Source of the DNA: Nitrosospira sp. | Lineage (GTDB): Bacteria; Pseudomonadota; Gammaproteobacteria; Burkholderiales; Nitrosomonadaceae | NCBI GenBank assembly: GCA_013697655.1 | Contig: JACCWK010000042.1 | Coordinates: 8,051 to 72,050 of the forward strand | Length of the DNA stretch: 64,000 nucleotides | Reading direction: 5' to 3' | Shown here: in pieces, positions 3,619 to 61,482 of the stretch | Layout of the letters: each line of letters opens with the position of its first letter | Position numbering within the stretch: the first letter of the stretch is position 1 | The notes under the pieces: model-generated | What the model saw: the letters and a program-made list of their open reading frames with translations, nothing else | The model's database searches: none | What the model was told of the DNA's origin: nothing | Position numbers and translations under genes: made by a program

Positions 3619-4434
3619 TTACATATTGCGGCTCTTCTTAATCAACTCATAAGCAGCCTGTACTTCCTGAGTTTGTGCGGTAGCCATGGAAATCATATCC
3701 TCTGGTACACCTTGGCCCATTAATTTGTCAGGGTGGTACTGGCTCATCAGCTTTCGATAAGCACGTTTGATTTCCTGATCGCTATTTTCTTTCGTCACAC
3801 CTAATGCTTTATAAGCATCGTCCAGAGCGGTGACGGAGGTGGTCTGCCCGCCGGCAAAGTGTGACTGACCTAAAACCATATCCAGCAGTTGCTTGAACGC
3901 GAACTGGTCGTAGCCCAGATGAAGAGCAAATTCTTTTAACAAACCTTCCTCAGCCGCATCCAGCCGTCCGTCTGACAATGCCATGACAATAAGATAAATC
4001 AGCAGCATCTGCTTCAGGCTGTTCGTGTGTCCGCAGACTGCCATGAATTCTTGCAGCTTAGGCTCAATATTAAAGCCCGGCGCCGCTCCCTGTTTAAACA
4101 GGGCGATTGCCAATTGTCGATGCGCAGAGGACATTCCCAGCTTCTGCATGAAATCTTCAACATGATTAATCTCATCCTGCGAGACATGCCCATCTGCTTT
4201 GGCAAGCTTTCCCATTAAGATGAAAACGGTTTCAATGAAAACTGTCTGGCGATGGGCGGTAGTGAGCGGATTAATCCCACCCGCACCGTAGGCTCTATAA
4301 CGGTCGATAAAACTTCCGACGATATATCCGACGAACGCGCCGAAAATACCCAGGAGGTAGTAACCTAATAGGACTCCGATTATTTTAAACAAAGGGGTTC
4401 CCTGAAATTTATGTAAAAAAGGATAGTCGTACAA
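3619..4434 (-). CDS. djlA: Co-chaperone DjlA (TM anchor, TerB-like domain, J domain)
   Basis: N-terminal Gly-rich TM segment, KLAKADGHVSQDEI, and a C-terminal J domain with AYRKLMSQYHPDK. The true start is probably slightly downstream of the ORF start. Confidence 0.9.
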   Translation of the reverse strand: MYDYPFLHKFQGTPLFKIIGVLLGYYLLGIFGAFVGYIVGSFIDRYRAYGAGGINPLTTAHRQTVFIETVFILMGKLAKADGHVSQDEINHVEDFMQKLGMSSAHRQLAIALFKQGAAPGFNIEPKLQEFMAVCGHTNSLKQMLLIYLIVMALSDGRLDAAEEGLLKEFALHLGYDQFAFKQLLDMVLGQSHFAGGQTTSVTALDDAYKALGVTKENSDQEIKRAYRKLMSQYHPDKLMGQGVPEDMISMATAQTQEVQAAYELIKKSRNM

Positions 4435-4624
4435 TCAGACAATTATTACTGAAATCTGCATTCTTTAGTTGGCATATAAAAGCTGAGAAATTTATTAATT
4501 CTGATTCTTAACTCAGCGTCCGCAAGTAAGCGCGATGATATCCATCAAAACTCCCTGCCCAAGCACAATGTAAATGGGGATTGCGGCAGGTCCATTCAAT
4601 ACATGCGAAACAAAGGAGACACCG

Positions 4625-51501: not shown

Positions 51502-52842
51502 TTGGCAACCATGGCACAGCCAGAATCCCCTCTTATGATTCAGATCAAACGATTATCTTCTGCCGATACCGGCTTCCAAGTGGCGCTAGAGAAACTGCTG
51601 GCGTTTGAAGACGCTCATGATACGGCGGTAGATGCAACGGTCTCCGATATTCTCACAAATATAAAGAAACGCGGGGACGAAGCCCTGCTGGAATACACGC
51701 GCCGCTTCGATCATCTTGACGTAAGCTCGGTGGCAGAACTTGAATTGTCCCAAAGCTGCTTGAAGCAGGCTCTGCAAAGCCTGCCTACAGATCAGCGTAC
51801 CGCGCTGGAGCAGGCTTCGGGACGAATACGCGCTTACCATGAAAAGCAACTGGCGCAATCCTGGAGTTATACGGAACCTGACGGAACGCTGCTTGGCCAA
51901 AAAATCACTCCAGTGAATTGTGTCGGGTTATATGTTCCCGGTGGCAAGGCATCTTATCCTTCATCGGTGCTGATGAATGCAATTCCCGCCAAGGTCGCAG
52001 GGGTGAGCGAACTTATCATGGTGAGCCCGGCTCCCGCTGGGAGAAAAAATAATCTGGTGCTGGCTGCGGCGGCGATTTGCGAGGTGGATCGGCTATTTAC
52101 CATTGGCGGCGCCCAGGCTGTCGGGGCGCTGGCCTACGGTACCGAGACGGTGCCGCGCGTGGACAAGATTGTTGGACCGGGCAATGAATATGTAGCGGCA
52201 GCCAAGCGCCGCGTATTTGGCGTGGTAGGCATAGATATGGTAGCAGGCCCGTCCGAAATCCTGGTGATTTGCGATGGCAAAACCGATCCTGACTGGATTG
52301 CAATGGATCTGTTTTCGCAAGCCGAACACGATGAACTGGCCCAGGCAATCCTTCTTTCTCCCGACGCAGATTTTATCGATGCGGTGGCGAACAGTATTGC
52401 ACGACTACTGGAAACAATGCCACGCAAGGCAGTGATACGTGCCTCGCTGGAAAACCGTGGGGCTCTGATTCAAGTACAAGATCTTGATGAAGCCTGCGCC
52501 ATCGCTAACCACATAGCGCCCGAGCATCTGGAGTTATCAGTCGAGCACCCCCAAAAATGGGCAGAAAAAATCAGGCATGCCGGTGCAATTTTTCTGGGAC
52601 GCTACACTTCTGAAGCACTGGGAGACTATTGCGCCGGTCCCAATCACGTGCTTCCCACCTCCCGTACCGCGCGCTTTTCGTCGCCATTAGGCGTGTATGA
52701 TTTTCAGAAACGTACCAGCCTCATCCAGGTATCGCAGCAAGGGGCGGCAAAACTAGGCGCCATTGCTTCAATCCTGGCTCATGGAGAGGGTCTGCAAGCC
52801 CACGCGATGTCGGCGGAATACCGATACAAGAAAGGCAATTAA
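51502..52842 (+). CDS. hisD: Histidinol dehydrogenase
   Basis: [44 protein letters not shown] and GPNHVLPT. Confidence 0.98.
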
Positions 52843-52927
52843 CCACCAGGCTTGTATCAGGCTTACCCTCAGCCACGCTAAGGACTCCACAATAACAAAA
52901 ATTTGTTGAGATCAAGACTTTCCCCGC

Positions 52928-55900
52928 ATGACCGATATCATAGATAACCGGCAGGAATTGCTTGCCGAGCACGTTTGCAAAATTTTACAGCAAACAGACT
53001 CGGTCAAATTTGCCGTCGGCTATTTCTTTGTGAGCGGGCTTCAGGAAATTCGCCAGCAGTTAACCCATATTTCGGCTATTCGCCTTCTCATCGGTAATCA
53101 ATCCAACCAGGACACCATTGATGCGCTGATGCAGCGAGAGATGCATCCTCAGCGTGCGCAGTCGGTTATCGGCAAACTACAAAACCCCAGGGAGAAAAAA
53201 CGCATTGCGGAAGAGACTGGTAAAGGAGTTCGTGAAGCCCTGTCCATTCCACCCTTGACCGATGAGACCGAAGAATTGCTGGCCGAAATCAAAGAGTGGA
53301 TGGCCTCGGGTAAACTTGAGGTGCGAGTCTACACGAAGGAAAAACTCCATGCTAAAGCCTATCTCTTCGCTTACCCCGAGCAAACTTATGAACAGGGTAT
53401 CGGGATCGTAGGCTCCAGCAACCTCACACTTTCCGGGCTACGGAACAACACGGAGCTCAACGTCCTGGTTCACGGTAATGACAACTTCAAGCAGCTCAAT
53501 ACCTGGTTTGATCGACTCTGGGAGGAAGGAGAACCATTTAACACCAGCTTGATGGAGGAAATCGAGCAGAGCTGGGCAAGCGCTGCTTATACGCCGTGGG
53601 ACATTTATCTCAAAACGCTTTACAAGCTGGTGGAAGATCGCCTTGATTATTCCGACAGCCACGTGCTGCATTGGGATGACAAGTTTCCACCCTTGACGAG
53701 GTTTCAGAAGGTAGCGGTCGACCAAGGCCTGAAAATCCTGCGCGATCACGAAGGTGTGTTCATCTCGGATGTGGTGGGATTGGGTAAAACCTTCGTCGGT
53801 CTTGGAATGCTGAAAAATCTCTATCGCTCCGGGTTAAAGCACCAGATCATCATCTGTCCCAATTCGCTGGAAGAGAATTGGAAGGAAGTTACCCGCGAAT
53901 ATGGGATTTTCCCGGATCTCATTCCCATATCACAAATTTCTGTCGAGAACTCGCCACTGAATAATGCCTGGACACAAAGTGCCGATATCGTACTGATAGA
54001 CGAATCCCACAATTTCCGTAATGCCGATTCACAGCGCTATGAAGCACTGGAGAATTTTTTACGGGGAAAGAAGGTCATCCTGCTGACTGCCACGCCGCGC
54101 AACAATAGCGCCTGGGATATTTACCACCAGCTTCGCTTATTCCAGGATGATGCGACGTCTACTCTCGATATCGGTGCTTACGATAATCTCAAGAAATATT
54201 TCAAGAAAGTAGCTGAGTTGGAAAAAAAATCGCAAGACCAAGGACTGCCTCAGAACCTACGCGATCAAGCGGCAAAAACAGCGGAGCGGATGATCGAACA
54301 TCTTCTGCTACAAGTTCTCATCCGTCGAACCCGCAGCCATATCAGGAAACATTATGCTGACAATTTGATAAACGGCGCACCGATAGAATTTCCCACCCGC
54401 AAACTCAATCGATTCGATTACAGCATAGATGCCACATATAACGGCCTCTATGCAGACATTCTCAAACGAATTTCAGACTTGCACTATGCGCGCTATTCCA
54501 TCGGTCTCTATCTCCAACCGGAGTTGACGGAGCGCCAGCCCTATGCACGCCTGGCGCGGGCCGGCCGTAGCTTACGTGGTCTGATGCGTATTCTGCTGCT
54601 TAAGCGATTTGAATCTTCGGTGGAAGCTTTCCGCCTCACGGTGCAAGGAATGATCCGGATGCACAACCGCTTTCTGGCTGTCCTTGAAGAAGGCTATGTC
54701 GTGTCTGATTCCCGGCTGCTCGATAAACTTGAAACCGAAAACGGAAATCTGGATATAGCATTGCTGGAAGAGGAAGACGTCCGGCGTTATGCCATTGCCG
54801 ATTTCCGCGCAAGCGAATTGGAACAGGATCTGCGGGAAGATTTGAACGTTCTCGGCGAAATTCTTGGCATGGTAAAGAATATAGGCGCGGAGCAGGATGA
54901 TAAACTGCAAACGCTGCTTGCCGCGATGCATGGTGAAACCCTTTCGTGTGAAAAAGTCATTATCTTCACCCAATATTCTGATACCGCACGTTATCTCCAT
55001 GATCATCTCGCGAAGGACATCAGCGATTTGGCGGTGATCGACAGCAAAACCAAAAACAGACTGCAAATCCTGCGCCGTTTTTCCCCTAGATCCAACCGTT
55101 ACACGCTCAAGGACAGCGAGAAAAAGATTCGTGTGGTTGTCGCCACCGACGTGTTTTCCGAAGGCTTGAATCTCCAGGACGCCGCCTGCATCATCAACTA
55201 CGATCTGCATTGGAATCCCGTACGCCTGATTCAACGCGTGGGACGTATAGACCGGATTGGTTCGTGCCATGACATCATCCATATCTACAACTTCTTTCCG
55301 GAAGTTGCACTCGACAAGGGGCTGGGACTCAAGGAACGGCTTGCACGCCGGATTCAGGAAATCCACAACACCATCGGTGAGGATGAAAAGATTCTGGATG
55401 AACATGAACAGCTCAATTCGAATGACATGTATGGAATTTACAGCAATGGCGAGCAATCCGTTGACGAGGAAGATGGTGGCTTCGACATTAACGAAGCTGA
55501 AATACTTATCCGCGATTTGAAAGATAACGAGCCGGAACTGTTTAACCGGGTGCGCAACCTCCCCGACGGCATCCGTGCAGGGCTCGCGTCGGATGTAACG
55601 GGCATCTTTGCATTCTTCGGGGTGGGCAAACGCTATAAACGCATGTACCTGATGAACGAAAAAGGCCAACTCGTTGCTTCGGAACCCGCTGAAATCGTGC
55701 CCTTGCTACGCTGCGACAGCGCTACACCGGGGGAAGCACTGACGCAAACGCACAACCAAGCCGTAGAAGTTGTCCGGCAACTTTTTGCCGAACATATTGA
55801 ACATATTTACCAGAGTCTTTCGCACCCGGTGCTGGAGCCCGAGCAGCACTATACAATCGATCAATTGCGTAAATCACGGCAAGACCTGTTCATCTCGGAT

Positions 55901-56143
55901 AGCCGCAAGAGCCTGCTGGATCACCTTATCAGCGTGGTGAGCCAGCAACAGCCCTCGTATGTGGTTGCTGCGCTACGCAAGCTGAAGAGGGAAAAACGCG
56001 GTGGTGACGACCTGCTGGATGCGGTAGACCACATCGTGCGTCACTTCGAGCTGGATAAACGTCTTGCCGAAAGGCAGGAATATATCCTTGCGCACCCTGT
56101 GTCGAAAATCTTCTGTTCCGAGTCGCTTATCAAGGTCTCCTGA
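52928..56143 (+). CDS. PLD-nuclease domain plus SNF2-family helicase
   Basis: N-terminal PLD-like LHAKAYLF...GSSNLT, Walker A SDVVGLGKT, Walker B LIDESHN, LLTATP, ATDVFSEGLNLQ and WNPVRLIQRVGRIDRIG. Confidence 0.92.
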   Translation: MTDIIDNRQELLAEHVCKILQQTDSVKFAVGYFFVSGLQEIRQQLTHISAIRLLIGNQSNQDTIDALMQREMHPQRAQSVIGKLQNPREKKRIAEETGKGVREALSIPPLTDETEELLAEIKEWMASGKLEVRVYTKEKLHAKAYLFAYPEQTYEQGIGIVGSSNLTLSGLRNNTELNVLVHGNDNFKQLNTWFDRLWEEGEPFNTSLMEEIEQSWASAAYTPWDIYLKTLYKLVEDRLDYSDSHVLHWDDKFPPLTRFQKVAVDQGLKILRDHEGVFISDVVGLGKTFVGLGMLKNLYRSGLKHQIIICPNSLEENWKEVTREYGIFPDLIPISQISVENSPLNNAWTQSADIVLIDESHNFRNADSQRYEALENFLRGKKVILLTATPRNNSAWDIYHQLRLFQDDATSTLDIGAYDNLKKYFKKVAELEKKSQDQGLPQNLRDQAAKTAERMIEHLLLQVLIRRTRSHIRKHYADNLINGAPIEFPTRKLNRFDYSIDATYNGLYADILKRISDLHYARYSIGLYLQPELTERQPYARLARAGRSLRGLMRILLLKRFESSVEAFRLTVQGMIRMHNRFLAVLEEGYVVSDSRLLDKLETENGNLDIALLEEEDVRRYAIADFRASELEQDLREDLNVLGEILGMVKNIGAEQDDKLQTLLAAMHGETLSCEKVIIFTQYSDTARYLHDHLAKDISDLAVIDSKTKNRLQILRRFSPRSNRYTLKDSEKKIRVVVATDVFSEGLNLQDAACIINYDLHWNPVRLIQRVGRIDRIGSCHDIIHIYNFFPEVALDKGLGLKERLARRIQEIHNTIGEDEKILDEHEQLNSNDMYGIYSNGEQSVDEEDGGFDINEAEILIRDLKDNEPELFNRVRNLPDGIRAGLASDVTGIFAFFGVGKRYKRMYLMNEKGQLVASEPAEIVPLLRCDSATPGEALTQTHNQAVEVVRQLFAEHIEHIYQSLSHPVLEPEQHYTIDQLRKSRQDLFISDSRKSLLDHLISVVSQQQPSYVVAALRKLKREKRGGDDLLDAVDHIVRHFELDKRLAERQEYILAHPVSKIFCSESLIKVS

Positions 56144-56151
56144 AACAAGCG

Positions 56152-59100
56152 ATGTCCATCGAAACCAGAATAAAAAATCTCAACGGCCTGGAAGACCTGC
56201 AAAGCTTGCTGGTGGAGGCAATCGGCTTCGAACCGGAAAATCGCGCTGTTTTCTTCGATGACAAACCCGAGTTACAAGCCGCCTACCACCGCCCTGCCGT
56301 GGTTGCGGGCTTGCATGGTTTTTACATACTGGTGCTGCCAACAACCGGTGAAGGCATGCGCAAGACCCGCCAGCGGCAAGCCATTGAAGCGTTGCGTGGC
56401 CGCTACCTCTTCGCCCTGTTTGTTTTTGTCGATCTGAAACAACCTCAACGTGAATGGCATTGGGTGTTTCCAACGCCCGGCCCGGCCACGGGCAGACGCA
56501 CGCTAAGGCGCATGGAAATTGGCAGTAATTCGCGCCTGCATACCATTGCGGAGCGTATCGAACTGCTCAGGAGCAAGCTGCCGGAATGCACCAATCAGGC
56601 AGCCGTTGCCGCCCAGGTACAGGAAGCCTTCGACGTCGAAGCCATCAGTAAGGCGTTTTTCATCGAATACCGGAAACAATATCTTTTATTCAAAACACAG
56701 ATCGTTGCGGATAACCGGGGCAAGCCGTGGGTCGATGATGACAAGAAGATTTCCCGCTATGCCCAGTTGCTGCTGGGCAGGATCATGTTCCTGCACTTCA
56801 TTGAAAAGAAGGGATGGCTCGATGGCAACCGCGACTTCATCCGCGATCTCTTTGAACCATTCCGGCGGAGTGAGCGAAGGGTATTTCATCAGGAAGTACT
56901 GGAACCGCTTTTTTTCCGGGCGTTAGGCAGGGAAGGCGGGCGCAAGACGATTGCCGGTGCGGAATATGCCATTCCATTTCTAAACGGCGGCCTGTTCGAG
57001 GCGCGCGCGGAATTTGCCGAAGACGATCCCCTGTTTGGACCGGTGGTAGCGGATGAACTCTTCGCCGGCCTGTTCGATATGCTCGGGCGCTACAACTTCA
57101 CCGTGGATGAATCCACCCCGCTTGACCAGACGGTGGGCATAGACCCTGAAATGCTCGGCAAGGTATTCGAAAACCTGCTGGAAGCGGAAGCGCGCCACGC
57201 CAGTGGCACCTATTACACCCCGCGCAGCATAGTCGAATATATGTGCCGCGAGATTCTGTTCCATTATTTGCATAGTCACACCGATGTTGCACGGGTGGTT
57301 TTCGATACCCTGCTTGATTGCGCGCTGGATGGCCGCAAGGCGGACATCGAAACTGCTCTGGCGCAGCGGCTGGATGCCGTGCTTGACCGTGTTACGATAC
57401 TCGATCCGGCAGTCGGCTCCGGTGCATTCCTGCTTGGCATGATGCAGGAAATCCTGACGCTCAAGGAAAGCCTCGCCCGCGCGCGGGGAAACAGCGAAGA
57501 GCACATCCGGGCGGAGCGCGCCAAGCGCAAGGCCGTGATCATCCATGAAAGCCTTTACGCCGTGGATATCTCCTTCCCCGCCATCGAAATCGCGCGGCTG
57601 CGGCTGTGGTTGGCGCTGGTGGTGGATGAAACCGGACCCCATCCCTTGCCTAATCTGGATTACCACATCCTGCGCGGCGATACCTTGCAAACCCTGCTGG
57701 ATGGTAAGCCACTATTGCCACCGGGCGCTGGGGCAGGTGGCGTGGGGACGGGTGGCGCAAGCGGGCTTGCACCGGGTGGACAAATACCGTTTCCCATCGC
57801 GGGTACACAAAGAACCCTGGATGACCACCTGCCCAATCCGTATACCGAAACGCTGTTGCGCCATCTGGACGCGCTCTATTCCGCCAACGGAGAGGAAAAA
57901 GTACGGCTACGCCAGGAAATCCGCGCCGTGCTTACCGCCATGATCGAAACGTATTGGATAAAAAGCGAAAAAAACCTGCAAGGCCGCGCGAAGGATTTGC
58001 TCGAGGCCACGCTGGATGGGAACCCGCAAAAACTCTCCAGGCCCAAGCTCAAAGAATATCTGGCAACCGAGGCGATGCTGGGCCGTATCGAGGAGGATCG
58101 GCGCCACTTGCGCGAATCCCGCGAGCAAAACGAGGAACTCAAGCTCCCGTTCACGCCGTTGCATCTTTATTTCGCCGAAGTATTCAGCGGTGACAATCCC
58201 GGCTTCGACATCGTCATCGCCAATCCGCCTTATGTCCGGCACGAGAAAATCAAGGACATTAAGCCGCAACTGGAAACTGAGTTTCCCGATTTTTACTGCA
58301 GTACCGCCGACCTCTACACCTATTTCTACCGCCGCGGGCTGGAACTGCTGAAACGCGGCGGACATCTCTGTTTCATTGCCCCGAACAAATTCATGCGCGC
58401 CGGTTACGGCGAGAATACCCGCAAACTGTTGACAAGCGAGGCGATACCGCGGGTCATTATCGATTTCGGCGATACACCAATTTTTGACGCGACCACATAC
58501 CCCGCGATTTTATTGATAGAAAAAACGCGGCTAGCGGGCCCCATCACTGCCGCCGTTATCAAAAACGCCGCCGACGTCGAGCGTATCGGCGAAGCCGTCA
58601 GCGAGCGCGGTTTTTCCATGCTGCCGCAGGATTTGCGCGTGCAAGGCTGGACGCTGGAATCCCCGGCGGTGCTCGCGTTGATGACGAAGCTGCGCTCCGC
58701 TGGCCAACCGCTAGGCAAATACGTGCAAGGCCGATTTTATCGTGGCATTCTGACCGGCTTCAATAAGGCCTTTGTCATAGACGCTACCACGCGCGCGCAG
58801 TTGGTTGCGGAAGACGCCAACAGCGTCGATCTCATCAAGCCTTGGCTCAGAGGCCGCGACATTCGTAAATGGAAGGCAGAATGGGCGGGGTTGTACATCC
58901 TCGCTATTGGCAGCAGCGCCAATCGGCAATGGCCGTGGTCGGACGCCGATTCCAAGGCCGAAGCGGAACGTATCTTCGCGGCAGCTTATCCTGCTATCTA
59001 TGAGCATCTGCGCAGGGAGGGGGATGCCTTTGCCGAGTGGAAACATACGGACAAGAAAAAACAGCAAGGTCTCTACAGCCGGGATGACCAAGGAAAGTAT

Positions 59101-60369
59101 TGGTGGGAACTGCGCTCGTGTGCCTACTATGCTCAATTCGAACAACCGAAGATTGTTTACCCAGATATTGCCCAAACCCCGAAATTTACTTGGGATGCGA
59201 GCGGCGCATTGTTGGGAAACACTGCTTACATCATTCCGACTGACGAGGTTTGGTTGATAGGTTTGTTAAATTCCAAATTGATTTGGTGGTTCTATTTAAA
59301 TCTTAGCTCGATCATTCGTGGCGGCTTTGTCAGGTTTATCGCACAATATATGGAACAGCTCCCCGTTTTGTCGGCCACCCCTGCTGAGAAAACCCCCATC
59401 ATCAGGCGTGTTGAAACCATCCTCGCTGACCCATCAAGTCCCGACGTGCCACGCCTGGAAGCGGAAATCGACGAGCTGGTTTTCGACCTCTACAATCTGA
59501 CCAAAGCTGAAAGACAGCTTGTCCTTGCCGCTCGCATCGAGTCATGCGAAGATGAAGCCCCTGAAGAAAATGACAATGACACCGAAACAACTTCAACAGC
59601 TCGATCAGCACCTGAATCAATGGCGAACCAGCCATCCCGATGCCGAAAGCCTGCGGGCAGCATATCGCCAACGGGTGCTGAAATTCACCCTGAGTTCGAT
59701 GGCGCTGGAAAACGAACCGGTCAATCCCGAGCGGCTGACGAAGCTGCTCAATCAACCGGCCTGCTAGACGCTACCCGCGAACTGGCGACGGCTGGCGGGC
59801 CACTTGCATATAGCGAAGTAGCCGAGTGTCTGGCGGTAAGCATTGCGCGCTGCCTTGGCGCGCTGCTTGAAAACCTGCCCGAAGACATTCGCATTACCCC
59901 GGAGTGGATTTGCGACATGCACCACCGCGTCGCCAGTGAGTTATTTCCGCAATGGGCAGGCCGTTTCCGCATCACCGATGTCCAGGTAGGCACTCATCTG
60001 CCCCCACCCGGCCATGAGATTGCGGCTCACATCAAGAATTTCTGTTTGGATCTGGAAGAACGCATGCGCCACCTTCACGGCGCGGAATCCATCGCCGCGC
60101 TGCTGGCATGGGCAGACTGGCGCTTCCAGTGGATACACCCTTTCAAGGATTTTAACGGCAGAACGGGCCGAATTCTGCTCGTCGCCTTGGCCTATAAACT
60201 CGCGCTCCCACCGGTTGACCCGGCCGCTACCCGTGAGTCCGGCAAATTCGCGTACTTTGCCGCGCTACGTGCGGCCGACGCAGGCGATCTCACTACACTG
60301 AACGATCTGTGGCTTGATTTGTTGCAGGGTGAAGCAACCATGCAACAGAATAATGTTGCAGAGACCTAA
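56152..60369 (+). CDS. Eco57I-like (Type IIG-like) N6-adenine methyltransferase/TRD protein reading through into a C-terminal Fic domain
   Basis: FLNGGLF, IDPEMLGKVFENL, YYTPR, motif I LDPAVGSGAF (about 57400), motif IV NPPY (58222-58233), a TaqI-C-like TRD, the usual terminal helix EAEIDELVFDLYNLT, then the Fic motif HPFKDFNGRTGR at 60136-60171. Confidence 0.9.
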   Translation: MSIETRIKNLNGLEDLQSLLVEAIGFEPENRAVFFDDKPELQAAYHRPAVVAGLHGFYILVLPTTGEGMRKTRQRQAIEALRGRYLFALFVFVDLKQPQREWHWVFPTPGPATGRRTLRRMEIGSNSRLHTIAERIELLRSKLPECTNQAAVAAQVQEAFDVEAISKAFFIEYRKQYLLFKTQIVADNRGKPWVDDDKKISRYAQLLLGRIMFLHFIEKKGWLDGNRDFIRDLFEPFRRSERRVFHQEVLEPLFFRALGREGGRKTIAGAEYAIPFLNGGLFEARAEFAEDDPLFGPVVADELFAGLFDMLGRYNFTVDESTPLDQTVGIDPEMLGKVFENLLEAEARHASGTYYTPRSIVEYMCREILFHYLHSHTDVARVVFDTLLDCALDGRKADIETALAQRLDAVLDRVTILDPAVGSGAFLLGMMQEILTLKESLARARGNSEEHIRAERAKRKAVIIHESLYAVDISFPAIEIARLRLWLALVVDETGPHPLPNLDYHILRGDTLQTLLDGKPLLPPGAGAGGVGTGGASGLAPGGQIPFPIAGTQRTLDDHLPNPYTETLLRHLDALYSANGEEKVRLRQEIRAVLTAMIETYWIKSEKNLQGRAKDLLEATLDGNPQKLSRPKLKEYLATEAMLGRIEEDRRHLRESREQNEELKLPFTPLHLYFAEVFSGDNPGFDIVIANPPYVRHEKIKDIKPQLETEFPDFYCSTADLYTYFYRRGLELLKRGGHLCFIAPNKFMRAGYGENTRKLLTSEAIPRVIIDFGDTPIFDATTYPAILLIEKTRLAGPITAAVIKNAADVERIGEAVSERGFSMLPQDLRVQGWTLESPAVLALMTKLRSAGQPLGKYVQGRFYRGILTGFNKAFVIDATTRAQLVAEDANSVDLIKPWLRGRDIRKWKAEWAGLYILAIGSSANRQWPWSDADSKAEAERIFAAAYPAIYEHLRREGDAFAEWKHTDKKKQQGLYSRDDQGKYWWELRSCAYYAQFEQPKIVYPDIAQTPKFTWDASGALLGNTAYIIPTDEVWLIGLLNSKLIWWFYLNLSSIIRGGFVRFIAQYMEQLPVLSATPAEKTPIIRRVETILADPSSPDVPRLEAEIDELVFDLYNLTKAERQLVLAARIESCEDEAPEENDNDTETTSTARSAPESMANQPSRCRKPAGSISPTGAEIHPEFDGAGKRTGQSRAADEAAQSTGLLDATRELATAGGPLAYSEVAECLAVSIARCLGALLENLPEDIRITPEWICDMHHRVASELFPQWAGRFRITDVQVGTHLPPPGHEIAAHIKNFCLDLEERMRHLHGAESIAALLAWADWRFQWIHPFKDFNGRTGRILLVALAYKLALPPVDPAATRESGKFAYFAALRAADAGDLTTLNDLWLDLLQGEATMQQNNVAET
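59576..59767 (+). CDS. FicA/VbhA-like antitoxin nested in an alternate frame
   Basis: 63 aa MTPKQLQQLDQHLNQWRTSHPDAESLRAAYRQRVLKFTLSSMALENEPVNPERLTKLLNQPAC, with the Fic-inhibitory (S/T)xxxE(G/N) motif SMALEN at 59696-59713. It ends at the start of the Fic domain. Alternative ATGs lie at 59552 and 59570. Confidence 0.8.
   Translation: MTPKQLQQLDQHLNQWRTSHPDAESLRAAYRQRVLKFTLSSMALENEPVNPERLTKLLNQPAC
59761..60369 (+). CDS. Fic-domain toxin portion (202 aa), possibly also translated alone from a CTG
   Basis: Fic core ITPEWICDMHH...WAGRFR...HPFKDFNGRTGR...YFAALRAADAGD, in the same frame as the methyltransferase ORF. Confidence 0.75.
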   Translation: MLDATRELATAGGPLAYSEVAECLAVSIARCLGALLENLPEDIRITPEWICDMHHRVASELFPQWAGRFRITDVQVGTHLPPPGHEIAAHIKNFCLDLEERMRHLHGAESIAALLAWADWRFQWIHPFKDFNGRTGRILLVALAYKLALPPVDPAATRESGKFAYFAALRAADAGDLTTLNDLWLDLLQGEATMQQNNVAET

Positions 60370-60399
60370 ATTAGCCAGATACCATGGTGTAATAGCCCT

Positions 60400-61482
60400 A
60401 TGCCCAGCTCTCCCGATCAAATTATTCGCCCGGAAATTCTCGCGCTCTCTGCCTATCATGTGCCGCCCGCAAGCGGCATGGTGAAGCTGGATGCGATGGA
60501 GAATCCTTATTCCCTGCCACTGGAACTTCGAGAGGAAATCGCACAGCTTGCGGCCAGTGCACCGATTAATCGCTATCCCGATGCGAGCGCTGCTTCGCTC
60601 AAGGCCGCGCTGCGGGAAGCGCTGGCGATTCCTGACAGGATGGACATTATGCTGGGCAATGGTTCGGACGAGATCATCCAGATTATCGCCTTGGCCTTTG
60701 CCAGACCTGGAGCAATGTTGATGAGTGTCGAGCCTGCATTCGTCATGTTCCGTATGATTGCCACTTTCACCGGAATGGGTTATGCGGGTGTGCCGCTGAA
60801 AGCTGATTTTTCGCTGGATATGGACGCGATGCTTGCCGCCATCGCGCGACACCAGCCAGTGGTAATTTTCATTGCCTACCCCAATAACCCCACCGGTAAC
60901 CTATTTGATGCCGAGGCAGTCTCGCGTATTATTGAAGCCGCCCCCGGAGTTGTAGTCGTGGATGAAGCCTACCATGCCTTCGCCGATGCGAGCTTTATGG
61001 GCAAGCTGGCGCAATACCCCAATCTGCTGTTGATGCGGACGCTCTCCAAACTGGGGTTGGCGGGTTTAAGACTGGGACTACTGGTCGGAAGATCGGAATG
61101 GTTGATACAACTGGAAAAACTGCGTTTGCCGTATAATATAGGGATTGTGACTCAACTGATAGCGGAAAAGGTATTGCAGCATTGCGATATTCTGCTGCAA
61201 CAGGCCGAATCGATCAAGATTGAACGAGCGGTAATGAGTGAGCGCCTGACAGCAATGGATGGAGTTAAGGTTTTTCCGACAGATGCGAATTTTATTTTGT
61301 TCCGCGTGACTCAGCTGAATGAGGCCGGCGAGGTGTTTCAAGGGCTAAAAAACCGCGGCGTCTTGATAAAGAATCTCGATGGCTCACACCCGTTACTTAA
61401 AAATTGCCTGCGCGTAACAGTGGGAACCCCCGGTGAAAACGCGCAGTTTTTGGTAGCACTACAGGCCTTGCTTAAGACTTAA
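60400..61482 (+). CDS. hisC: Histidinol-phosphate aminotransferase
   Basis: [27 protein letters not shown] and the PLP-Lys motif [14 protein letters not shown]. Confidence 0.97.

Follow-up and report, generated by a model that had tools for sequence, protein, structure and literature searches.

Why should a restriction methyltransferase end in a Fic domain, and why should the predicted antitoxin of that domain be encoded out of frame inside the same gene? The question is raised by a cassette at positions 52928-60369 of a 64,000-nt stretch of Nitrosospira sp. DNA (contig JACCWK010000042.1, positions 8,051 to 72,050). We refer to the whole stretch as the window and use its coordinates throughout, unless another contig or locus is named. 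Two long co-oriented open reading frames (ORFs), 8 nt apart (AACAAGCG), encode a PLD(HKD)-SNF2 protein (P0001) and an N6-adenine methyltransferase joined to a target recognition domain (TRD) and a Fic domain (P0002); a short third ORF lies within the second. An earlier sequence-only reading had reported this cassette with its coordinates, the 8-bp gap, the catalytic motifs and a small ORF with an SxxxEN motif. Direct reading of the sequence and its motifs bore out each of these, and all four components proved real and intact, as judged by Pfam domains, motifs and the conservation of the nested ORF.

A predicted antitoxin gene conserved out of frame within the fusion gene

The short ORF occupies the +1 frame relative to P0002. 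It is open from stop to stop between 59501 and 59767, contains FTLSSMALENEPVNPERL, offers ATG codons at 59552, 59570 and 59576, and closes with TAG at 59765-59767. Use of the ATG at 59552 as an alternative start would give an antitoxin of 71 residues. The predicted inhibitory motif, S41-M-A-L-E45-N (SMALEN), is encoded at 59696-59713.

We surveyed 91 loci and found the Fic motif in 83 and a match to the antitoxin profile in 82. Both were present in 74, and in 73 of these the antitoxin lay in the +1 frame, its ORF ending 354-399 nt before the Fic motif. The first seven fused loci, from Nitrosospira-like bacteria, Sulfuritalea, Nitrospira and Nitrospirota, all carry the ORF in the same frame (7/7), with W, H, R, L, S, A, E, P, V and R residues invariant; over the shared bases, the antitoxin frame keeps an amino-acid identity of 51% among them and the host frame one of 32%. 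Neither S41 nor E45 varies across 35 antitoxin sequences.

The coding signature was assessed in 27 non-redundant fused loci, using 12-codon bins, sign tests and a Mann-Whitney test. Upstream and downstream of the nested ORF the third position of the host frame is the most variable, and over the nested ORF (approximately 59518-59739) the first position becomes the most variable and the third the least. Position 1 was more variable than position 3 in 45 of 60 columns within the nested ORF versus 31 of 243 outside it (Mann-Whitney p=4e-18). Read in the antitoxin frame, diversity at the three positions was 0.40, 0.33 and 0.51, the third position varying most, as is usual for coding sequence. Such a switch in codon phase would be expected of purifying selection acting on the +1 frame. 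Across the same loci the third frame contains 106 stop codons, while neither the antitoxin frame nor the methyltransferase-Fic frame contains any. These substitution patterns indicate that the nested ORF is a genuine, conserved gene rather than a chance ORF.

Signals for its translation are conserved as well. The betaproteobacterial-type loci listed, free and fused, have an ATG 15 codons before the invariant Trp, in most cases with (G)AGGA 8 nt upstream, and the antitoxin stop is TAG in 30 of 33 loci. A promoter-like scan of the cassette region returned no more sites than expected by chance. One 9/12 match before the antitoxin, at 59468-59496, was rejected as an internal promoter because the regional count was at this chance level and the site is built by conserved methyltransferase codons.

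AlphaFold2 (AF2) models the antitoxin as a three-helix protein with a predicted local distance difference test score (pLDDT) of 83, S41...E45 lying at the end of helix 2. It had no significant match in Pfam or NCBIfam, none in PADLOC, and none in the PDB better than E=2, and its sequence had no detectable similarity to the VbhA or YhfG models.

The same module without a fusion partner

The profile made from the nested ORF also finds 365 called proteins of about 63 residues, up to 90% identical to the window's antitoxin. Three of these called homologues were looked up, and each is encoded directly upstream of a free Fic gene (155-197 residues); one is from the isolate Sulfurisoma sediminicola. 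To judge from these gene neighbourhoods, the family of the antitoxin is a genuine toxin-antitoxin family.

Free toxins of the ‘separate’ type have a conserved GTG start just before the antitoxin stop. The Fic part of the fused forms has no start codon of its own, and in the window this GTG is CAA, which suggests that Fic can be produced here only as part of the methyltransferase. Some free modules are arranged differently (L013, L123 and L125; e.g. L013 6892-7758), in that the toxin appears to begin with a conserved MSKDIE... some 110 nt ahead of the antitoxin, so nesting exists also in the absence of a fusion partner. The toxin starts at these three loci appear to have been called too far downstream by gene callers. 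Fused and free forms interleave on a tree of the Fic domain, where the well-supported branches require no fewer than 4-5 transitions between the two states, and the window's clade sits among free betaproteobacterial modules.

A FICD-like Fic domain

The Fic domain itself was modelled by AF2 with pLDDT above 90. Its nearest solved relative by both sequence and fold is human FICD (phmmer 2e-16, Foldseek 1.7e-10), followed in the Foldseek search by EcFicT/FicA (5jff) and VbhT/VbhA (3shg), with target-normalised TM scores of 0.73 and 0.70. The predicted catalytic His is His1329 of P0002, and the His, Asp, Asn, Gly and both Arg residues of the Fic motif are invariant in the family. A motif scan of all frames found no in-cis (S/T)xxxE(G/N) motif in the P0002 frame. 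The Fic domain is separated from the TRD by a linker for which pLDDT was 31-39 across the 64 residues modelled (1143-1206 of P0002), suggesting that it is disordered.

Recurrence of the module on restriction and CRISPR proteins

The sequence-only reading had proposed a restriction-like first line tied physically to an AMPylating toxin, and a link of the Fic module to restriction proteins is borne out by its recurrence on them, described below. The search which that reading suggested, for further proteins joining Eco57I and Fic, gave 48 clusters of fusion homologues, 782-1584 residues long, of which 45 contain methyltransferase domains (1214-1584 residues). The complete unit of PLD-SNF2 protein, methyltransferase-Fic fusion and nested antitoxin is kept in at least four assemblies, at methyltransferase identities of 59-89%, but most methyltransferase-Fic fusions are single-chain, type IIG-like proteins with a nuclease domain of their own, and where the upstream DNA reaches far enough, most lack a PLD-SNF2 neighbour.

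The Fic module follows the TRD in three restriction architectures: single-chain type IIG proteins, methyltransferases partnered by PLD-SNF2, and HsdS-like subunits of nuclease-methyltransferase systems. Fusions of the last kind, about 760-830 residues long, join an HsdS-like part with two TRDs (PADLOC Specificity_I, 1e-31) to Fic through a linker that holds the nested antitoxin (L135 2555-4837, L137 2195-4690 and P0008). In L135 and L137 the HsdS-Fic gene is preceded by an HSDR_N_2-N6_Mtase gene, an arrangement like that of type IIB/BcgI systems.

A profile search for this Fic clade, which covered 1.84 billion representatives, placed it also at the C-terminus of type I-G-like Cas3 and Cas_GSU0054 proteins (P0312, P0320, P0323, P0324, P0327, P0307 and P0318); in a single case a Cas3-like helicase carries it N-terminally. 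The Cas3-Fic gene at L197 1743-5087 contains a +1-frame ORF (4003-4560) with SMWMEGEPV (VFLSMWMEGEPVS), ending 306 nt before HPFQDFNGR. The antitoxin profile misses this Cas3-linked version, which has the motif alone in common with the others. The distribution indicates that the link of Fic is to methyltransferase/TRD and immune proteins, and not to the helicase.

We also noted other gene arrangements around related methyltransferases. A UPF0175/DUF3368 toxin-antitoxin pair (L195 13511-14341) directly follows a Fic-less, PLD-partnered methyltransferase, and a MazE/PIN pair (L001 7406-8004) overlaps the start of a Sulfuritalea methyltransferase-Fic gene. At L116 3894-5783, an ORF of 630 residues comprises TaqI_C and Fic only; it is possibly a broken or mis-assembled methyltransferase-Fic gene, and the same contig carries a PLD-SNF2 protein (P0176) with 83% identity.

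The host proteins and known systems

P0001 carries PLDc_2 (residues 23-198), SNF2-rel/ResIII and Helicase_C (659-778) domains in that order. Its N-terminus has a single HKD motif, H141-A-K143 (His141 at 53348), with GSSN at 162-165 (53411). The SNF2 motor motifs are intact: Walker A GLGKT at 284-288 (53777), DESH at 358-361 (53999) and motif VI QRVGR at 769-773 (55232). The family is large, with at least 7866 relatives at E<=1e-30, all under generic names. The PADLOC ‘HKD+Snf2’ model C3a139 matches P0001 at 3e-87; we did not adopt it as the identity of a defence system, as it is a cluster label from type III CRISPR neighbourhoods (Shah et al., 2018) and denotes no defined system.

In P0002, the Pfam spans are 467-778 for the Eco57I methylase, 897-1072 for the TaqI_C TRD and 1248-1346 for Fic, and the PADLOC model REase_MTase_IIG matches at 2e-116. 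In the window's methyltransferase subfamily, a deletion has removed the D...ExK block that nuclease-bearing relatives possess. The N-termini of 10 PLD-partnered methyltransferases share no conserved acidic or Lys motif, their sole invariant residues being M1, T131, F160 and F169.

These features indicate that the PLD-SNF2 protein and the MmeI-like methyltransferase form a split type IIG-like restriction-modification (R-M) pair of the AchA6III type, a kind already described (REBASE; Blow et al., 2016). In Blow et al., 2016 (PMC4752239, S4 Fig B), one gene of that type has the methyltransferase/TRD architecture of MmeI without PD-ExK. P0002 likewise has MmeI_Mtase, Eco57I, N6_Mtase and TaqI_C in that order and no N-terminal PD-ExK motif, and P0001 (PLDc_2, SNF2, Helicase_C), encoded 8 nt upstream, corresponds to the partner gene. 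As described there, the AchA6III family has no Fic domain and no antitoxin, and the methyltransferase here is about 330 residues longer. The likeness is one of architecture; in the literature searched, no biochemical demonstration of restriction by the family was found. The suggestion of the sequence-only reading that the architecture as a whole was undescribed thus does not extend to the helicase-methyltransferase pair.

Fic-less versions of the pair are widespread. A PLD-SNF2 homologue, in part or whole but mostly full-length, lies within 6 kb of the methyltransferase in 34 of 80 related loci, in cyanobacteria, Thermotogota, Bacteroidota, Clostridia, Chloroflexota and a haloarchaeon. A variable third gene is common there, encoding a PD-(D/E)xK or Cas4-like nuclease, an AAA_15/21-DUF3226 ATPase or an Mrr_N protein. 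The methyltransferases paired with two P0001 relatives, of 61% and 56% identity, are Fic-less and 1074 and 1061 residues long, which suggests that the Fic part is a later addition in the window's sublineage.

Other known systems share components with the cassette. Class 1 DISARM (DrmA, DrmB, the PLD protein DrmC, the SNF2 protein DrmD and DrmMI) likewise combines a PLD/HKD nuclease, SNF2 and an N6-adenine methyltransferase, and DrmD and DrmMI models match here in part. We rejected this assignment, in agreement with the sequence-only reading: neither DrmA (a helicase with DUF1998) nor DrmB is present in the cassette, which directly adjoins hisD and hisC, and the DrmD equivalog model NF038317 gives 160.8 bits against a cut-off of 610. 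Type-2 BREX-related systems, which consist of a DUF499 ATPase, an N6-methyltransferase, an HKD-Swi2/Snf2 helicase and DUF3780 (PMC12839542), share the PLD/HKD nuclease, the SNF2 motor and the N6-adenine methyltransferase. The cassette has neither the DUF499 AAA+ ATPase nor DUF3780 and was not assigned to these DUF499-centred systems; nor was P0002 taken for a BREX PglX, since the NCBIfam BREX methyltransferase models listed score 13-53 bits against cut-offs of 400-900. A single-chain type IIG (MmeI) or type ISP enzyme was likewise set aside, because nuclease and motor are here on a separate protein; the Nitrospira and Sulfuritalea relatives of the methyltransferase-Fic fusion do have the single-chain layout, with nuclease, methyltransferase and TRD in one polypeptide.

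An island in the histidine operon

The cassette forms an accessory island of 7.5 kb in the spacer between hisD and hisC (Table 1), with hisG-hisD to the left and hisC-hisB-hisH-hisA to the right (Pfam matches include IGPD, GATase and His_biosynth). Six of the seven same-genus hisC loci recovered are empty of the cassette, hisD ending there about 30-290 nt before hisC, and no close homologue of P0001 was found in 36 same-genus genomes (0/36). An insertion at the same site is present in a Nitrosospira metagenome-assembled genome (L009) and in a more distant contig (L007); at a further locus (L008), the PLD-SNF2 and methyltransferase-Fic pair is present in a different genomic context.

Between the window and L009, nucleotide identity is 95-99% over the cassette, 80-90% over the his flanks and 70-78% over the TRD segment at 58478-59681. 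The TRD appears as a mosaic at the protein level, with 44-86% amino-acid identity in a protein that is otherwise 96-100% identical. A cassette more alike than its flanks, together with the divergent TRD segment, points to recent exchange of the cassette between lineages and to TRD swapping. The combination of TRD swapping and horizontal exchange is behaviour typical of restriction systems.

The island is co-oriented with the his operon, and no terminator-like site was found between its end and hisC (60370-60399). As a consequence, hisC, hisB, hisH and hisA may depend on read-through of the 7.5-kb insert. A near-repeat of 9 nt, AATTA(A/G)CCA, occurs at both borders (~52833-52841 and ~60369-60377), possibly by chance; it is present in L009 and absent from L007, and for the latter reason we did not treat it as a target-site duplication.

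Two more systems were seen in the same genome, at C95:19876-25146 and C124:199-9176 (L193, L194). Each encodes an SNF2-like helicase, a DUF4391 protein and an N6_N4 methyltransferase; the C124 system has in addition a ResIII/RE_endonuc protein, and a resolvase is encoded directly upstream of the C95 system.

Table 1. Cassette features and flanking genes, with positions in the window.
Feature	Position	Strand	Basis
hisD, histidinol dehydrogenase (left flank)	51502-52842	+	Pfam Histidinol_dh 3.7e-169
85-nt spacer from hisD stop to cassette start (left island border)	52843-52927	+	direct sequence reading
P0001, PLD(HKD)-SNF2 predicted nuclease-translocase, 1071 residues	52928-56143	+	Pfam PLDc_2, RE_NgoFVII, SNF2-rel_dom, Helicase_C
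P0002, MmeI/Eco57I-like N6-adenine methyltransferase-TRD-Fic fusion, 1405 residues	56152-60369	+	Pfam Eco57I, N6_Mtase, MmeI_Mtase, TaqI_C, Fic
Methyltransferase N-terminal domain without PD-(D/E)xK catalytic motif	56152-57150	+	alignments of relatives
Gamma-class N6-adenine methyltransferase core	57403-58485	+	motif I DPAVGSG at 57403, NPPY at 58222
TaqI_C-type TRD	58840-59367	+	Pfam, residues 897-1072
Interdomain linker, ~residues 1130-1205 (~80 residues, low complexity)	59539-59767	+	reading frame open, protein sequence unconserved
Nested predicted FicA-type antitoxin gene, +1 frame of linker, 63 residues	59576-59767	+	profile, coding signature, AF2
Fic domain, FICD-like fold	59770-60366	+	active-site motif HPFKDFNGRTGR at 60136-60171, AF2, Foldseek
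hisC, histidinol-phosphate aminotransferase (right flank)	60400-61482	+	Pfam Aminotran_1_2

Proposed mechanism and alternatives

From the anatomy of genes and domains, their conservation, the dual coding, the recurrence on immune proteins, the TRD swapping and the horizontal exchange observed above, we infer every enzymatic activity, the Fic target, the trigger and the outcome for defence. We incline, with some reserve, to the reading that the cassette is an ATP-dependent R-M system of the AchA6III type whose specificity and methylase subunit carries an antitoxin-gated Fic effector as an abortive back-up. The MmeI-like methyltransferase, with its TaqI_C-type TRD and no nuclease of its own, would read a specific DNA site and methylate host DNA, and the PLD-SNF2 protein would supply ATP-driven translocation and cleavage of unmethylated DNA. 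The class-I-type Fic domain, which has no in-cis inhibitory helix, would be tethered to the C-terminus of the methyltransferase by the disordered linker. The antitoxin would be made from its own ATG by ribosomes that initiate internally on the shared mRNA, and its S41xxxE45N helix would keep nucleotide from binding productively in the Fic site, in the manner of VbhA and FicA. It might fail or be displaced through phage shut-off of host expression, through engagement of or interference with the restriction complex, or through loss of the locus; the trigger that we prefer is its loss or displacement during infection, or upon engagement or inhibition of the restriction complex. Freed of its inhibitor but still tethered, the Fic domain would act on a cellular target, AMPylation being the probable modification, and bring growth to a halt as a back-up to restriction.

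The functional model that we favour for the Fic arm is the anticodon nuclease PrrC of the EcoprrI type Ic locus. By analogy, this latent toxic enzyme is associated with an R-M complex and provides an abortive back-up once a phage has inhibited restriction. PrrC differs in being a separate protein silenced by the restriction complex itself, with no known dedicated antitoxin, and in its chemistry, which is tRNA cleavage.

Several observations weigh against the proposed antitoxin-gated, abortive role. The first Gly of the Fic consensus HxFx(D/E)GNGRxxR is Phe in every family member (HPFKDFNGR), and residues other than Gly at this position occur in Fic enzymes with other chemistries, such as AnkX and Doc. 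With the other catalytic residues invariant and this one replaced, AMPylation by the Fic domain is likely but not assured. FICD, the closest solved relative, is a regulated AMPylase/deAMPylase and no toxin. The window's Shine-Dalgarno-like element (GAAGAAAA) is weaker than that of L009 (GAGGAAAA), and no family members were found on viral contigs in IMG/VR or on sequenced plasmids in PLSDB. In 30 of 41 free modules no stop interrupts the Fic frame over the antitoxin gene, so fusion would be easy and could in part be neutral. Finally, a frameshift upstream in the methyltransferase would remove Fic yet spare the antitoxin, so the fusion would not penalise point inactivation of the restriction gene.

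A broader idea, which we put forward tentatively and consider possible rather than probable, is that the FICD-like Fic domain and its out-of-frame nested antitoxin make up a portable ‘dead-man switch’ on DNA-targeting immune proteins. Phage shut-off, anti-restriction or anti-CRISPR activity, or target engagement would then lead to an AMPylation-type arrest. The toxin would be made only within the immune protein, and the ratio of toxin to antitoxin would be set by elongating versus initiating ribosomes.

The module might instead be an addiction unit or a hitch-hiker: a selfish Fic toxin-antitoxin pair that inserted downstream of restriction genes and fused to them owing to the naturally open -1 frame of ficA, stabilising the island by post-segregational killing or having no role in defence, and with no cross-talk with restriction. 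This would fit the many free two-gene modules, the openness of the Fic frame across the antitoxin in most of those examined, the frequent changes between fused and free states on the tree, the UPF0175/DUF3368 and MazE/PIN pairs directly beside related methyltransferases, and the movement of the cassette between lineages. We nevertheless think it rather doubtful, as the fusion recurs specifically after R-M TRDs and type I-G Cas proteins, the subunits that recognise DNA or act as effectors in two immune systems unrelated to each other, an overlap of ~60 codons has stayed open in 27 of 27 diverged fused loci in which the toxin's own start is lost, and the fusion has been retained with its PLD-SNF2 partner over the 59-89% range of identity given above. 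A regulatory role, in which the attached Fic domain adds AMP to, and removes it from, the restriction complex itself or a DNA-bound partner and the Glu of the small protein acts as the switch, like Glu234 of FICD, would tune restriction, for example in restriction alleviation. It would agree with the bifunctional chemistry of FICD and with the covalent union of Fic and an enzyme that could be regulated; moreover, DNA-binding-induced (de)AMPylation has been reported for a Coxiella Fic protein (PMC10628234), and deAMPylation for SoFic. Free members of the same clade, however, show the classic gene layout of class I toxin-antitoxin pairs, and the presence of the module on such unrelated hosts as TRD, HsdS-like, Cas3 and Cas_GSU0054 proteins argues against one specific substrate in cis, so we regard this role as unlikely.

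An artefact would have to merge methyltransferase, ficA and ficT through an assembly or frameshift error, or else programmed frameshifting would have to yield a methyltransferase-antitoxin fusion. The low-complexity linker and the failure of gene callers to annotate the nested ORF could be taken as hints of this kind. The uninterrupted fusion is found, however, in 48 protein clusters and >30 independent assemblies, and the fused Fic part has no start codon of its own; as for recoding, the antitoxin keeps its conserved ATG and, in most loci, its Shine-Dalgarno-like element, as in the free modules, direct sequence reading found no slippery heptamer near the junction, and +1 shifts are rare. We therefore consider error or recoding highly improbable.

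Comparison with known systems

Two parts of the cassette were already known, namely the restriction pair and class I Fic toxin-antitoxin pairs. In the searchable literature we did not find Fic fused to restriction specificity modules, an antitoxin nested out of frame in a toxin ORF, or that unit on CRISPR proteins. The nested ORF is a well-supported case of a conserved bacterial gene nested on the same strand, whose product and that of its host gene are predicted to be linked functionally as inhibitor and inhibited domain. Standard gene callers overlook it in every fused locus seen, and the annotation of the host proteins, now named just ‘Fic family protein’ or ‘Eco57I methylase’, can be corrected accordingly. 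The repeated fusion of one Fic toxin-antitoxin clade to restriction and CRISPR proteins points to a general coupling of an abortive or addictive effector to first-line immunity. The dual frames also offer a clean genetic handle, since a mutation silent in one frame can disable the other.

The closest parallels for the module are the class I Fic pairs, VbhT/VbhA of Bartonella schoenbuchensis, EcFicT/EcFicA and Fic/YhfG of E. coli. These share a Fic fold without an in-cis inhibitory helix and a small helical partner, with an (S/T)xxxE(G/N) motif, encoded just upstream. The window's module differs from them in that the antitoxin gene lies wholly within the toxin-bearing ORF, in the +1 frame, and in that a restriction methyltransferase carries the toxin as its C-terminal domain. 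Its Fic core is also nearer to FICD than to FicT and has Phe for the first Gly of the motif.

For the nesting itself, small functional proteins made from an internal start within a long bacterial ORF are represented by comS inside srfAB of Bacillus subtilis and by the small subunits reported to be translated internally from the large-subunit genes of type I CRISPR systems (bioRxiv 10.1101/2020.04.18.045682). Unlike in either case, the nested product here is predicted to inhibit a domain that the long ORF itself specifies, the host frame encodes no more than a spacer over the overlap, and the arrangement is kept across phyla and across different host proteins.

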